From Escherichia coli (lineage in GTDB: Bacteria > Pseudomonadota > Gammaproteobacteria > Enterobacterales > Enterobacteriaceae), in NCBI RefSeq assembly GCF_003991155.1, contig NZ_CP031293.1: a stretch of 64,000 nucleotides of DNA. One strand, written 5' to 3'. Of the stretch, positions 7,937 to 11,987 are shown in pieces (the first letter of the stretch is position 1; every line of letters starts with the position of its first letter). The translations under genes and the position numbers were made by a program. The notes under the pieces are model-generated. The model was not told where the DNA came from and did not search any database. It was given only the letters and a program-made list of their open reading frames with translations.

Positions 7937-8646
7937 AAATCGAACTGACGGTGAATGGACTAAAGGTACAGGCGCAGTACTCTGATGATGAAATTGAAAA
8001 TGTACATAAACCATTGCTGCGTATGCTGGCGGCCTTACAGACAGTAAATCCGCAGCGGCGTACGGTGGTTTTTCTTTGCGCTCCGCCGGGGACGGGTAAA
8101 TCTACCCTAACCACCTTCTGGGAATATCTCGCGCAACAAGACCCGGAACTGCCCGCTATTCAGACGCTGCCGATGGATGGTTTTCACCATTACAATAGCT
8201 GGCTGGATGTGCATCAATTGCGACCCTTCAAAGGCGCACCAGAGACATTCAACGTTGCGAAACTGGCGGAAAATCTGTGCCGGGTTGTGGAAGGGGATTG
8301 TACGTGGCCGCAGTACGATCGACAAAAGCATGATCCTGTTGAAGATGTGTTGCACGTTACCGCACCACTTGTCATCGTCGAAGGAAACTGGTTGTTGTTG
8401 GACGACGAGAAGTGGTGCCAGCTTGCGCAATTTTGTGATTTCTCGATCTTTATCAAAGCTCCCGCATCTGCGTTGCGGGAGCGTCTGGTGGGGCGCAAGC
8501 TGGCGGGAGGGTTATCGCTGGCAGACGCAGAAGCCTTTTATGACCGTACCGACGGGCCGAATGTTCGCCGGGTGCTGGAAGAGAGTCTGCCTGCAAATTT
8601 GACCTTAATGATGACCGCTACGGGTGAATATCGTCTGATGGATTAA
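7933..8646 (+). CDS. yggC: P-loop nucleoside/pantothenate-kinase-like protein, 237 aa
   Basis: ORF 7933..8646; Walker A (CAPPGTGKST); start overlaps the yggD stop by 4 bp. Confidence 0.85.
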   Translation: MKIELTVNGLKVQAQYSDDEIENVHKPLLRMLAALQTVNPQRRTVVFLCAPPGTGKSTLTTFWEYLAQQDPELPAIQTLPMDGFHHYNSWLDVHQLRPFKGAPETFNVAKLAENLCRVVEGDCTWPQYDRQKHDPVEDVLHVTAPLVIVEGNWLLLDDEKWCQLAQFCDFSIFIKAPASALRERLVGRKLAGGLSLADAEAFYDRTDGPNVRRVLEESLPANLTLMMTATGEYRLMD

Positions 8647-9250
8647 CGTTCCTGATTACACCATCTTCCAGTCGCACCACACGAGAGAAATGACGCCGGG
8701 TAAATGCGGCGTCATGACTGATTGCTACGACGCTCGTGCCTCGCTGGCGGCACTTTTCCAGCCAGCTTTCAAACACGCTCAACCAATTTTCGTCAAAATC
8801 CCGACTCGGCTCGTCCAGTAGCAATAGGGGTGGAGAGAGTGCTTCCAGGCTGGCGACGGCGACCATCCGTCGCTGCGCACTATGCAGATCTAACGGATGC
8901 GCGCTGGCAGTGTCTGCTAACTGGCAGCATTGCAGGGCAGCATTGGTACGTTGAGTGATTTCATCCGCCGGGCATTTTTGCAGTTTCAAACCAAATGCGA
9001 TCTCGTCAGCAACAGTGCTGTGAAAAAGCTGGTTTTCCGCGTCCTGAAACAGTACGCCAATCTTTGCCGCGCGCTGGCGGTTTTTCAGGTTTTTCATCGC
9101 TTGTTGTTGCAGCATAACCGTACCGGCTGTGGGCGTAAGAAGACCTGCCATTACTCGTAACAGCGTCGATTTTCCCGCGCCAGGCCAGCGATAAGATATC
9201 TGATTTAACGTTAACATAGTGGCTGGAGCGCTCCGTTTTGCAATTGCCAC
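8618..9250 (-). CDS. ABC ATPase domain, second half of a probable fused ECF-transporter ATPase; likely degenerate
   Basis: ORF 8618..9250; ABC signature-like LDLHSAQRRMV and Walker B LLLLDEPSRDFD present, but the P-loop reads RWPGAGKST (first Gly lost, preceding strand missing); overlaps the upstream ATPase ORF by 40 nt in another frame and the 3' end of yggC by 29 bp. Confidence 0.5.
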   Translation of the reverse strand: MAIAKRSAPATMLTLNQISYRWPGAGKSTLLRVMAGLLTPTAGTVMLQQQAMKNLKNRQRAAKIGVLFQDAENQLFHSTVADEIAFGLKLQKCPADEITQRTNAALQCCQLADTASAHPLDLHSAQRRMVAVASLEALSPPLLLLDEPSRDFDENWLSVFESWLEKCRQRGTSVVAISHDAAFTRRHFSRVVRLEDGVIRNVNPSDDIHP

Positions 9251-9894
9251 GCTTGCTGGCAGTGGTTCAGGAAAGGTGTGTGATGACGTTCAAAAAGAAT
9301 AATCAGCGAACCACGTTCAAGCGCCCAGTGTTGTAAGCGCTGCAACAGCATTTCGCGGGCCTGCGGCGTCAGGCGGCTAAAGGCTTCATCAAGAATTAAG
9401 AGCTTTGGCTGCATCGCGATGGCGCAGGCGATGACCACACGCTGTGTCTCTCCACCGGAGAGTGTTGCCGGGTGACGATGGCGCAACGACTGGCACTCGG
9501 TCAGGGCCAGGGCGGCGTCAATCCGCGCCATAATCTCTTTTTCAGCAAGACACAGATTTTCTGGCCCAAAGGCAACTTCTTCTTCCACGCTAAAGGTACA
9601 GCCGGAGAGCTGCAAATAGGGCGATTGCTGGACGAGCTGGATGGTGGCGGATTGTTCATTAAGCGGGAGACGCCCAATGGGCGTACCGAGAAGCGTCCCC
9701 GTGCCGGTTATCTCTCCTGGTAGAAAGTCCGGATACCAGCCCGCCATCAGCTGCGCCAGCGTACTTTTGCCACTGCCGTTGTCACCAAAGATGGCGACCA
9801 TCCCCGGTTTGACATAGTGAAAGTCATAACAGAACGGAGGATGCGTTGAGTGTGTCGGGCAATAGCGAAACTGTTCTAACGTAACCATATCCAC
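9211..9894 (-). CDS. ECF/ABC transporter ATP-binding domain, 227 aa
   Basis: ORF 9211..9894; Walker A GDNGSGKST, signature LSGGETQRV, Walker B LLILDEAFSRL; start overlaps the upstream T-component stop. Confidence 0.7.
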   Translation of the reverse strand: MDMVTLEQFRYCPTHSTHPPFCYDFHYVKPGMVAIFGDNGSGKSTLAQLMAGWYPDFLPGEITGTGTLLGTPIGRLPLNEQSATIQLVQQSPYLQLSGCTFSVEEEVAFGPENLCLAEKEIMARIDAALALTECQSLRHRHPATLSGGETQRVVIACAIAMQPKLLILDEAFSRLTPQAREMLLQRLQHWALERGSLIILFERHHTPFLNHCQQAWQLQNGALQPLC

Positions 9895-10583
9895 GCTCCG
9901 AATTCAGCCAGCATTAGCAATATCATGGCGTAACGTGCTACGCGTTGTAGGGTGCTATCGGCTGGTGCCCATAACGTAGTGCGCCTATTGTTGATTCGAA
10001 ATGCCCGCATATCCAGCGCCGCACCACGGACAGCAAGATCGTTTAGCGCATTGTGTGTTAGCGGAATAATTAACGCGGGCATCGCACGTAAACGCTGATA
10101 CCAGCCCTCATCCAGCGGCACGCCGCGGGCGCGCTGCGCTTCATGAATAATCGCCAATTGCCGTTTTAACTGCTCAACGACCAATAACGGCCCGGCAAAC
10201 AGATAAGCGACGCCCGGCGGCAGGCGAGAAGCAAACAAAGCGCGGATAAAACGTTGCACGGGGACGTACTGCATCCACAACTGTGAGGTTGAAACAATCG
10301 CCAGAATCCGCAACCAGAGCGTAATAGCATGCGCCCACCGTTCTGGAGAGCGTGGCGTGCCGCTTAGCCATTCTGTCAGCCAGCCACCGTGCACCAGCCA
10401 CAGTCCAGCCCCCAGCGAGAACATCAGCCAGACGACATATTTTGCCCGCCGCCGCGTGGCCTTTAGCGCAATAAGGCAGAAAAAGGTCGCCGCGCTATAG
10501 ACTGGCAATATTGTCTGTGTGGGCAGGATAAGCGTGGTGCAGGCCGCCAGCGCCCACAGCGTTAAGGATGTAAACGGATGCAT
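9876..10583 (-). CDS. ECF transporter transmembrane (T, EcfT/CbiQ-like) component, 235 aa
   Basis: ORF 9876..10583; polytopic membrane protein with CbiQ-like conserved Arg-rich loop region; start codon abuts the stop of the upstream S component. Confidence 0.65.
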   Translation of the reverse strand: MHPFTSLTLWALAACTTLILPTQTILPVYSAATFFCLIALKATRRRAKYVVWLMFSLGAGLWLVHGGWLTEWLSGTPRSPERWAHAITLWLRILAIVSTSQLWMQYVPVQRFIRALFASRLPPGVAYLFAGPLLVVEQLKRQLAIIHEAQRARGVPLDEGWYQRLRAMPALIIPLTHNALNDLAVRGAALDMRAFRINNRRTTLWAPADSTLQRVARYAMILLMLAEFGAWIWLR

Positions 10584-11162
10584 TTAGCGCACGGCAGCCA
10601 TTGCCGGAAAATGGCGCGTGGTGCGAATCGGCAGCTGACGCAGTAAAAGCCAGACAATCACCGCTGTGAGAATTTTATCGACCAGGTTCGCGCCTATCAC
10701 CGTAATCGCCACCGACTCCACCAGGTTTTGCCCCATCGAGTGCATCCAGGCAACGAACAAATCGGCTCCGCTTCCTGTCACGCCGCCGAACAGCGCAGTA
10801 CGCAGCGGTACAGCGACGACCGTTACCGCAAGCGTAATAATCACGCCGCTAACAACGACTTTTGGCAGGGTGCGAAACCAACCCGCTCGCGCCAGCCAAC
10901 CGGCGACCAGGCCGATGACCATCGCGACGGGCGCAAATGCGGCGGCGATCGGGTCGGTCAGCAATCCCCAGAGTAAATTGGTCAGTAAACCGGTTAGCAT
11001 CCCGATCACCGGACCAAGCAGTACCGCGCTAATAAGTGTGCCGATGGAGTCGAGAAAAATAGGTAATTTGACCATGCTGGCCAGTTGCCCGCCGATCATA
11101 TTGATGGCGATAGAGATAACGATCAACACCAGTGCCTGACTGGAAAAGTGGCGACGCGCCAT
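10584..11162 (-). CDS. ECF transporter substrate-specific (S) component-like membrane protein, ~193 aa
   Basis: ORF 10584..11261 trimmed to the internal Met (MARRHFSSQ...) because the longer form overlaps the upstream gene; ~6 predicted TM segments, small size typical of S components. Confidence 0.55.
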   Translation of the reverse strand: MARRHFSSQALVLIVISIAINMIGGQLASMVKLPIFLDSIGTLISAVLLGPVIGMLTGLLTNLLWGLLTDPIAAAFAPVAMVIGLVAGWLARAGWFRTLPKVVVSGVIITLAVTVVAVPLRTALFGGVTGSGADLFVAWMHSMGQNLVESVAITVIGANLVDKILTAVIVWLLLRQLPIRTTRHFPAMAAVR

Positions 11163-11184
11163 AAGAAAACCTCTCTGAAAATAG

Positions 11185-11616
11185 TTATTTAACGGGGGAA
11201 ATATGCAACTCGTCGTAACCAGAAAGCGCGCAAAGCTGGCGGCTAAACGCCAGTTCCTCAAGGCAGCCGATCACCAGTTCAAGCGTGGTCCGCACGGTAC
11301 AGCCGGGCATCATATGACCGCCAAGCATCGTGCCGTGTGGATCGGAAACGCAGAGATGAAGATGTTCACCACTCTGTTCCAGCGTGCCGTTCAATGCGAT
11401 GACTTCGAACTTACCGCTTAGCAGGGCTGTGTTTTCTTGCCCGGCATAGCGTAAGGCGACGTCAGTCAGACTGCCGGTACAACCTGCAATCCACGCGGCG
11501 TGGAGTTGTTGTTGCTGCGCGAAGGCGCGTAATTGGGAGAGAACTTCCTGCCCGGGGAGCAGGCGCAGCGCGTAAAAACGTGCGGAGGAAGAATATGGGT
11601 AGGGCAATGTCATCAT
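11185..11616 (-). CDS. DUF296 / PPC-domain protein, 143 aa
   Basis: ORF 11185..11616; recalled similarity to the PPC (DUF296) domain family; first gene of the minus-strand island operon. Confidence 0.55.
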   Translation of the reverse strand: MMTLPYPYSSSARFYALRLLPGQEVLSQLRAFAQQQQLHAAWIAGCTGSLTDVALRYAGQENTALLSGKFEVIALNGTLEQSGEHLHLCVSDPHGTMLGGHMMPGCTVRTTLELVIGCLEELAFSRQLCALSGYDELHISPVK

Positions 11617-11987
11617 TGGAGTACTCCGAAACTCGGACGTATTGCGGATAATATCGACGCTGCATCAGTCATATTCTGATATAAGTCAGGGTTTGTGACG
11701 GCACAACGAAAAGATTTTGCTACGCTTATTCGTGATTCTGCAAAGTGGAATAAATTCCACAGGGGCGGGGCTGAAAACGTGACGTAAGTCAGATAATTGT
11801 CTTCTTTGACTGGACAATCATTCCTTTTATTCCACGTTTCGCTTATCCTAGCTGAAGCGTTTCAGTCGATTAAATGTTCGACAATTAACCAATCAGTCGC
11901 AGTTTGCGACAGGTAAGGTTTCCCCGAACGATTTGCTGGATTACTCTGTCTGGCAAATTTGCTCAGGGAAAACCTTGCAGGAGATCT

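Follow-up and report, generated by a model that had tools for sequence, protein, structure and literature searches.

Which compound is taken up by the transporter encoded between yggC and epd in many strains of Escherichia coli, and why is its operon headed by a gene for a small PPC/DUF296 protein? The question is raised by a 64,000-nucleotide stretch of the E. coli contig NZ_CP031293.1 (assembly GCF_003991155.1; hereafter, the window), in which, according to the list of open reading frames (ORFs) and the RefSeq annotation, yggC (7933–8646, plus strand) and epd (from 11988, plus strand) flank five co-directional genes of the minus strand. These are, in the order of transcription, lmiA, encoding the PPC/DUF296-domain protein LmiA (11185–11616, 143 amino acids, aa), and the genes for the components of an energy-coupling factor (ECF) transporter, i.e., the substrate-capture component S (10584–11162, 192 aa), the scaffold component T (9876–10583, 235 aa; named so in RefSeq) and the ATPases EcfA (A; 9211–9888, 225 aa) and EcfA' (A'; 8618–9217, 199 aa instead of 225), the last of which shares 29 nt at its 3' end with the 3' end of yggC. 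The new element reported here is that PPC-S-T-A-A' represents a fixed five-gene cassette. Jointly, the observations are best explained, in a tentative reading to which slightly less than an even chance is given, if the locus, an ancestral cassette known as O island 119 (OI-119), encodes an ECF importer of a nucleoside- or nucleobase-type micronutrient, the cargo being bound or processed by LmiA.

A five-gene cassette and its importer

The finding of the locus is not news as such, since it has already been catalogued and partly studied. By its position, gene order and protein identity, the region is recognizable as the E. coli copy of OI-119, a 3.12-kb island of enterohemorrhagic E. coli (EHEC) O157:H7 EDL933 comprising the genes z4267–z4271 (PMC7667037): the five genes stand between yggC and epd in the order found in O157, LmiA of the window shares 93% identity with its O157:H7 counterpart, and the elements published for the lmiA promoter (PhoP footprint, −35 and −10) are present verbatim. 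The copies differ in that the one in the window comes from a B2-type human isolate with no stated link to the enterocyte effacement locus (LEE) and has a 78-bp deletion in EcfA'. The product of lmiA has been described as a PhoP-induced regulator of the LEE and gad genes (PMC7667037, PMC11657066), and the locus is listed in the genome paper of E. coli W as a “cobalt transport system”.

The gene calls could be compared with those of E. coli FDAARGOS_1284, which matches the window at 100% over the compared 4 kb and in which RefSeq annotates all five genes. The start of S is placed at the ATG at 11162, not at the TTG at 11261 opening the longest ORF, because all homologs in the alignment begin there, and RefSeq agrees. 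From lmiA to A', the successive genes are separated by a gap of 22 nt and a gap of 0 nt and then overlap by 13 and 7 nt. The coordinates, this tight packing and the families of the products bear out the operon-like cluster of PPC, S, T and two ATPase genes noticed in a preliminary description of the window, made from the sequence alone, and the family assignments proposed there hold in profile searches (PF03479, PF12822, CbiQ, ECF_ATPase_1/2).

The assignment of S relies on its match to PF12822 (E = 2.4e-8) and on its AlphaFold2 model (predicted local distance difference test score, pLDDT, 91.7), for which 18 of the 18 best matches in the Protein Data Bank are ECF S components (RibU, FolT, ThiT, HmpT, PanT, BioY), with a probability of about 1.0 and template modeling (TM) scores of 0.5–0.69. 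With the best NCBIfam model, ECF_S_CD3073 (NF045596), the protein scores 135.5 bits, short of the cut-off of 180, and hence does not qualify as a member of that family; all ten sampled relatives, scoring 101–151 bits, likewise stay below the cut-off. The T component matches the Pfam family CbiQ weakly (E = 1.7e-4), over residues 10–197, i.e., in full length, and its coupling-helix motifs A149-Q150-x-x-R153-G154 and R186 are kept in 22 diverse homologs. The best NCBIfam matches of the ATPases are TIGR04520 (ECF_ATPase_1; 126 bits) for A and TIGR04521 (ECF_ATPase_2) for A'; these and the cbiO models all score under their equivalog cut-offs. No gene for a solute-binding protein is present at the locus in the ORF list or the RefSeq annotation. 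The combination of S, T and two ATPases without such a gene is that of a predicted dedicated (group I) ECF importer, joined here by a PPC protein. The likeness to the group I systems BioMNY, CbiMNQO and NikMNQO lies in the operon composition (S, T and two ATPase genes, no periplasmic binding protein), the S fold and the T motifs; the differences are that the S component of the cassette is unrelated to BioY, CbiM and NikM, that a cytoplasmic PPC protein is the invariant fifth gene product and that one of the ATP sites is degenerate.

The degeneracy concerns the whole family. EcfA possesses the LSGG signature and both Walker motifs (A and B) in canonical form and lacks the conserved His of the H-loop; family-wide, A keeps LSGG and has a conserved Glu at the position of this His. 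Conversely, A' combines canonical Walker A, Walker B and H-loop with a degenerate signature (PLDLHSAQR; P-x-D-L...R). This conserved asymmetry suggests a motor with one catalytic and one degenerate ATP site.

The occurrence of the cassette was surveyed by a profile scan with the S alignment, one genome being taken per species, which yielded 80 loci. They span Enterobacteriaceae, Morganellaceae, Budviciaceae, Aeromonas, beta- and alphaproteobacteria, Desulfobacterales, Synergistaceae, Spirochaetaceae and Chloroflexi. In 78 of these loci, representing at least six phyla or classes, the gene for the PPC protein is located immediately 5' of S, on the same strand, and T, A and A' follow; of the two exceptions, one is cut by the edge of the locus and the other, from Bosea, has no PPC gene. 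Clustering of the neighbors in the cassette loci revealed no further neighbor conserved across lineages beyond the five genes. Such a strict PPC-S-T-A-A' linkage across phyla provides a testable handle on the biochemical role of the PPC/DUF296 domain.

Variations on this architecture were also encountered. Synergistaceae combine T, A and A' in single fusion proteins, 827 and 911 aa long, which are encoded 3' of PPC and S (L075, 6568–9051; L086, 4396–7128). The S family as a whole comprises 1972 representative clusters (E ≤ 1e-3), where the fusion proteins are S–T fusions and a few sensor kinases, uninformative as to the cargo. In the latter (P0220, P0239 and others in alignment A5), an S-like membrane domain is fused to PAS, HisKA and HATPase modules, which suggests that the ligand-binding fold of S has been reused there as a sensor. 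Genes of a resistance–nodulation–division (RND) pump, common to Aeromonas sobria and Bosea, were considered as a clue to the substrate and rejected as generic efflux genes.

Candidate cargo and the role of LmiA

Information on the cargo was sought in the genomic context of S relatives 39–51% identical to the E. coli protein, nine contexts being sampled. In P0139, a GntR regulator and a RihA/RihC-like nucleoside hydrolase are encoded directly 5' of S-T-A-A', and a Rih-like hydrolase stands directly 5' of S in P0147 as well as in the Bosea locus (L091; S 50% identical). In P0149, a LacI–ribokinase fusion and three nucleoside hydrolases are followed by S-T-A-A'; the operon of P0146 includes a nucleoside phosphorylase of the PNP/UDP type (PNP_UDP_1, L096), and that of P0131 a TudS-related desulfidase of the CD3072 family, encoded after the ATPases (L010). 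The contexts of P0129, P0134 and P0142 are uninformative. By locus, Rih-like hydrolases adjoin S relatives in L093–95, L097, L100–102 and the Bosea L091. A cargo of nucleoside or nucleobase type is suggested because genes for relatives of S are co-encoded with nucleoside hydrolases, a nucleoside phosphorylase or a desulfidase of the TudS-like, thionucleobase type. The link is also seen in the related QrtT S components, which import queuosine precursors (PMC11130926). Counted for the same link is the RNA-seq analysis of an lmiA mutant by Sun et al. (2024), in which 169 genes were changed (145 up, 24 down) and the up-regulated set was enriched for “nucleotide transport and metabolism” (PMC11657066). 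The preliminary description regarded the substrate as not inferable from sequence; this does not wholly hold, given that the operon context of related S components hints at nucleosides.

LmiA belongs to the PPC/DUF296 family (PF03479, E = 2.7e-27), shares 78% identity with two Salmonella entries from structural genomics, 2HX0 and 2NMU, and consists of a single beta-rich domain of acidic character (isoelectric point, pI, 5.8). A motif search of the protein found neither an AT-hook (RGRP, GRP) nor a helix-turn-helix (HTH). Invariant in its PPC homologs are H85, H87 and H101 (His-x-His...His), described by Liu et al. (2020) as a probable zinc site (PMC7667037), along with three Glu and three Arg residues. 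The PPC fold resembles that of zinc acetolactate decarboxylases and shares with it the three-His metal site. Such zinc proteins, with alpha-acetolactate decarboxylase and human PTD012, form the AF0104/ALDC/PTD012-like superfamily of SCOP; LmiA differs from these proteins in being a single domain of 143 aa. To our knowledge, no catalytic activity has been established for any PPC protein.

Combined, these observations suggest the following mechanism. Outside the cell, the S component would capture a small polar compound of low abundance, most likely a micronutrient of the nucleoside or nucleobase type. The T-A-A' module would then spend ATP at a single canonical site, to which A' contributes the H-loop and both Walker motifs (A and B) and A the LSGG, so that S topples and the cargo is set free within the cell. 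LmiA, which holds the slot occupied in the sister operons by cargo enzymes, would most likely bind or chemically process the imported compound (or sense it), and its effects on LEE and gad in EHEC would represent a secondary or lineage-specific role. The architecture of the cassette speaks for a native role of LmiA connected with the transporter and not with the regulation of virulence.

Several points weigh against the proposed nucleoside importer with a cargo-handling LmiA. The inference of nucleosides comes from paralogous subfamilies (39–51% identity) and from few contexts (six of the nine sampled); in the PPC-linked subfamily itself, the S genes have no informative conserved neighbor. The likeness to the decarboxylases is distant (13–18% identity), and the induction by PhoP and low Mg has no obvious link to nucleosides. 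Moreover, an electrophoretic mobility shift assay (EMSA), a DNase I footprint (TTAAAGTCGTTTGTTAA), chromatin immunoprecipitation with quantitative PCR (ChIP-qPCR) and reporter data have been published for LmiA at LEE1, gadA and gadBC, gadA and gadBC being bound directly according to Sun et al. (2024), and support direct binding of DNA (PMC7667037, PMC11657066). Finally, the deletion of z4268–z4271 produced no adherence phenotype, adherence being the sole assay on these deletions (PMC7667037); since the transporter genes thus do not share the adherence phenotype of lmiA, LmiA has at least one transporter-independent effect in EHEC.

A bolder version of the cargo-handling role, plausible in outline and still rather doubtful, is that the PPC/DUF296 protein is not a transcription factor at root. 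It would be a conserved cytoplasmic fifth component of the ECF system, either a small zinc enzyme or a cargo receiver, processing an imported modified nucleoside or nucleobase, possibly a thiolated or selenated one in view of the TudS-like, YedF-like and TsuA/YeeE-like genes described below, and the LmiA regulon of EHEC would be a metabolic or moonlighting consequence. If true, a biochemical function would thereby be assigned for the first time to the PPC domain, found in plant AHL proteins as well.

The binding and reporter data are, on the contrary, at the core of the alternative in which LmiA is primarily a DNA-binding transcription factor, either a regulator of the ECF importer or a sensor of its ligand, the His triad being a structural or allosteric zinc site. 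The 169 genes altered in the mutant and the place of lmiA as the first gene of the operon, usual for an autoregulator, would agree with such a role. We consider it unlikely, given that the protein is acidic and consists of a single beta-rich domain with no AT-hook or HTH, that the footprints were obtained with 2.5–5 µM protein (PMC7667037) and that the published deletion was not accompanied by catalytic-site mutants, so polar or metabolic effects are not excluded. Furthermore, the cassette is kept in phyla having no LEE or gad targets, the invariant three His, three Glu and three Arg resemble an active site, and the sister operons have a separate GntR or LacI regulator, the slot equivalent to that of lmiA being held by an enzyme. 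The “DNA-binding” label of DUF296 itself comes from the AT-hook partners of the domain in plants: the AHL proteins share PPC/DUF296 with the bacterial LmiA, but they combine it with an AT-hook, and it is the AT-hook, not the PPC domain, that serves as their DNA-binding element.

A quite improbable alternative is an importer of divalent metal (cobalt, nickel, zinc or magnesium), with LmiA as a His-rich metallochaperone or metal sensor induced via PhoP at low Mg. The matches of T to CbiQ and of the ATPases to cbiO models, from which the cobalt label in the E. coli W paper could seem to gain support, are generic to all ECF modules. The S component is not CbiM/NikM-like: no CbiM or NikM model is among its NCBIfam matches, the locus has no small extra membrane gene of the CbiN/NikN type nor a NikL partner, and among the conserved residues of S there is neither His nor Cys nor Met, the polar ones being Asn, Asp, Ser, Thr, Lys and Arg; besides, its closest relatives reside in nucleoside operons. 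The His triad of LmiA and the enrichment of “inorganic ion transport” among the genes down-regulated in the lmiA mutant (PMC11657066) would fit a metal importer, as would the published induction by PhoP at low Mg (PMC7667037), but the PhoP footprint is located in DNA shared with K-12 5' of epd.

Very improbable, in our estimate, is a special case of the nucleoside reading, namely that the cassette is an importer of queuosine precursors of the QrtTUVW type. Its appeal stems from the membership of QrtT in PF12822, from the import of preQ1, queuine and queuosine by the characterized QrtT components (PMC11130926, PMC11477304) and from the position of C. difficile qrtT beside the gene of QueK, an enzyme of the nucleoside hydrolase family (PMC11477304), reminiscent of the Rih-like genes beside the S relatives. 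Still, no preQ1 riboswitch was detected, either in the window or in the 11 diverse loci of the cassette that were scanned, no queuosine gene occurs among the neighbors of the cassette, and E. coli has its own de novo synthesis of queuosine and a salvage of preQ0 and preQ1 via YhhQ (PMC5372724). Taken together, the QrtT/QueT and CD3073 components resemble the S of the cassette in belonging to PF12822, in CD3073 being its best curated match and in having relatives encoded with nucleoside- or nucleobase-processing enzymes; they differ from it in that it scores below the CD3073 cut-off, lacks the riboswitch and the queuosine genes and operates with its own T-A-A' module, not a shared one. The Salmonella orthologs STY3230–3233 bear the label “queuosine-regulated ECF transporter” in a SEED subsystem. 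Literature searches on DUF296 with ECF, TudS with ECF and CD3073 returned nothing useful.

Apart from these alternatives, genes reminiscent of sulfur or selenium metabolism occur in the vicinity of certain cassettes or S relatives. In five loci from Chloroflexi (L078, L081–L084), a gene resembling the C-terminal part of YedF is situated directly 5' of PPC, two of the five scoring 100–106 bits against TIGR03527 (cut-off 110). Morganella and Brucella gallinifaecis have a TsuA/YeeE-like gene next to the cassette (L059, 4148–5194; L088, 8947–10137), and the TudS-related desulfidase gene of L010 (3633–4196) is located 3' of the ATPases in a relative of 44% identity. A link of the cassette to sulfur/selenium chemistry may be considered a weaker thread.

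Ancestry of the locus and its state in this strain

The preliminary description gave yggC and epd as adjacent in K-12, and this is the case: in MG1655, the genes are 284 bp apart and the cluster is missing, as it is in a BL21 derivative, where they are adjacent too. Its remark that ECF transporters are uncommon in E. coli applies to K-12-like strains only, since 3317 of 5426 complete genomes (61%), including those of ST131 and O157:H7, contain 80% or more of the 4-kb query, the rest matching its flanks only. Accordingly, the notion of E. coli as an “ECF-free” host holds for K-12 and BL21 but not for most natural isolates.

In E. albertii, Salmonella and Atlantibacter, the cluster directly adjoins epd; tktA follows in Salmonella, and Atlantibacter displays the same yggC-fumE-yggF-yggP-cmt context as E. 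coli. Homologs of S are 81–99% identical throughout Enterobacteriaceae. Because the cluster is found in the same place next to epd in these genera and across the family, its presence is, judging from synteny, ancestral, and the K-12 lineage has lost it. Of the two possibilities left open in the preliminary description, insertion or a deletion in the K-12 lineage, the distribution at the yggC–epd junction thus argues for the loss and against the insertion.

The extent of the difference was established by global alignment with the BL21 locus (L003). The identity is 95% up to 8415 and 72–78% in 8416–8614, no homolog exists up to 11766, and 98.8% identity is resumed from 11767; hence, the region 8416–11766 distinguishes the window from K-12 and BL21 and includes, apart from the cluster, the divergent last ~230 nt of yggC. 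The C-terminus of the K-12-type YggC is in frame and homologous still. YggC of the carrier allele is 95% identical to that of E. albertii, the K-12 allele 84%; the carrier allele being the closer one to the outgroups, this also points to ancestral presence. The K-12-type empty site looks like the result of replacement by a divergent allele already lacking the cluster, not of a clean deletion.

The view of the LmiA papers that the island was horizontally acquired, inserted between yggC and epd and absent from commensals is scarcely credible in the light of these data, which show an ancestral locus occurring in 61% of complete genomes, that of strain W included: the absence from K-12, the original definition as an O island and the unusual divergence of the yggC 3' end between carriers and non-carriers at the left junction would suit an insertion, but they are already contradicted by the outgroup synteny, the affinity of the carrier yggC allele to the outgroups, the lack of mobility genes, tRNA and flanking repeats at the locus in the ORF list and RefSeq annotation, and a GC content (0.51–0.59) near that of the flanks and not clearly foreign. 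With an ancestral cassette in most E. coli and in many LEE-free bacteria, the EHEC phenotypes of lmiA are to be read differently.

In the strain under study, the importer is damaged by a lesion missed in the preliminary description. Pairwise alignment with the ST131 locus (L002) revealed the 78-bp in-frame deletion in A', marked in the window by its junction at 9174|9175 (within 9167–9182) and flanked by the 8-bp direct repeat CCGCGCCA. Relative to ST131, the deletion removes residues 15–40 and fuses WPGA to GKST, so that the P-loop has lost its first Gly and the strands before it are gone; the Walker A of A' is partly removed, and the nucleotide-binding sites of this strain are not intact. 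Among the 5426 complete genomes, just 9 share this junction. Since the only canonical ATP site uses the P-loop of A', which is damaged, transport is probably lost, i.e., the importer is probably inactive in this strain, with lmiA intact.

The lmiA leader and neighboring features

The published PhoP footprint of lmiA (CTTACGTCACGTTTTCAGC), reported by Liu et al. (2020) as the PhoP-bound site of the promoter, is found in the window at 11770–11788 (minus strand) as an exact match, followed by the published promoter at 11706–11743 (minus strand; −35 TTGCAG at 11738–11743, −10 TAGCAAAAT at 11714–11722) with the transcription start site (TSS) at about 11706, 90 nt 5' of the ATG (PMC7667037). The right boundary of the island relative to BL21 being at 11767, the footprint is inside DNA that K-12 retains 5' of epd. 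It adjoins a Cra-type box, GCTGAAGCGTTTCAGT (11851–11866), and itself reads as a CRP-like half-palindrome, CTGACTTACGTCAC. The box belongs to the epd promoter. The PhoP footprint may primarily serve the control of epd.

Closer to lmiA, a phylogenetic footprint of 30 distinct leader sequences from Enterobacteriaceae revealed three elements at fixed spacing. The first is the palindrome CTGACTTATATCAG with the core TGAT-N4-ATCA (CTGATTTATATCAG; 11676–11689, minus strand), which is invariant in the 30 leaders and unique in the window, where 0.04 occurrences are expected. The second is a conserved −10-like hexamer, TATTAT (TAtnAT; 11648–11653, minus strand), always 22 nt 3' of the palindrome; in spacing, the pair has the geometry of a putative class II activator-dependent promoter. 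The third is a small hairpin of five pairs, ACGTCCGAGTTTCGGAGT (11623–11640, minus strand), the 3' arm of which contains the Shine-Dalgarno sequence GGAG of lmiA. The hairpin is paired in 93% of the alignment cells and shows compensatory changes in two pairs, its covariation score being exceeded in none of 500 shuffles, for an element that is tiny; A-U pairs are changed to G-C in Superficieibacter, the stem is re-drawn in Pseudescherichia and the length of the loop differs between genera. All three elements lie 3' of the published TSS, i.e., within the 5' untranslated region, and are not discussed in the LmiA papers. In Proteus, Providencia and Aeromonas, they are missing.

As candidate binders of the palindrome, FNR and CRP were rejected, the discriminating base being C and not T (FNR) or G (CRP). 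So was YeiL, a regulator of the CRP/FNR family encoded next to rihB, nupX and psu genes, given that no such site is found in the promoters of this 35-kb region of K-12.

The failure of the preliminary description to find an obvious riboswitch upstream agrees with the covariance-model scan: no Rfam family matched significantly in 8000–12600, even at E ≤ 5, and the published leader of 96 nt shows no better folding than its shuffles (z = 0.18). An Rfam scan of 11 diverse cassette loci returned only a tRNA and a distant guanidine-II element, with no riboswitch for the cassette. The latter element, in Kaistia terrae (L087, 4225–4269; 39.6 bits against the gathering score of 32), is located ~1.2 kb 5' of PPC and probably controls a different small gene.

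Beyond the cassette, yggF, encoding a paralog of class II fructose-1,6-bisphosphatase, carries in the window (7090–7405) a frameshifting deletion of 650 bp with the junction at 7254|7255 and is annotated as a pseudogene fragment and an ORF of 32 aa. This junction is present in 556 of 5426 complete genomes, including those of Nissle 1917 and of ATCC 11775, the type strain, and hence marks a lineage.

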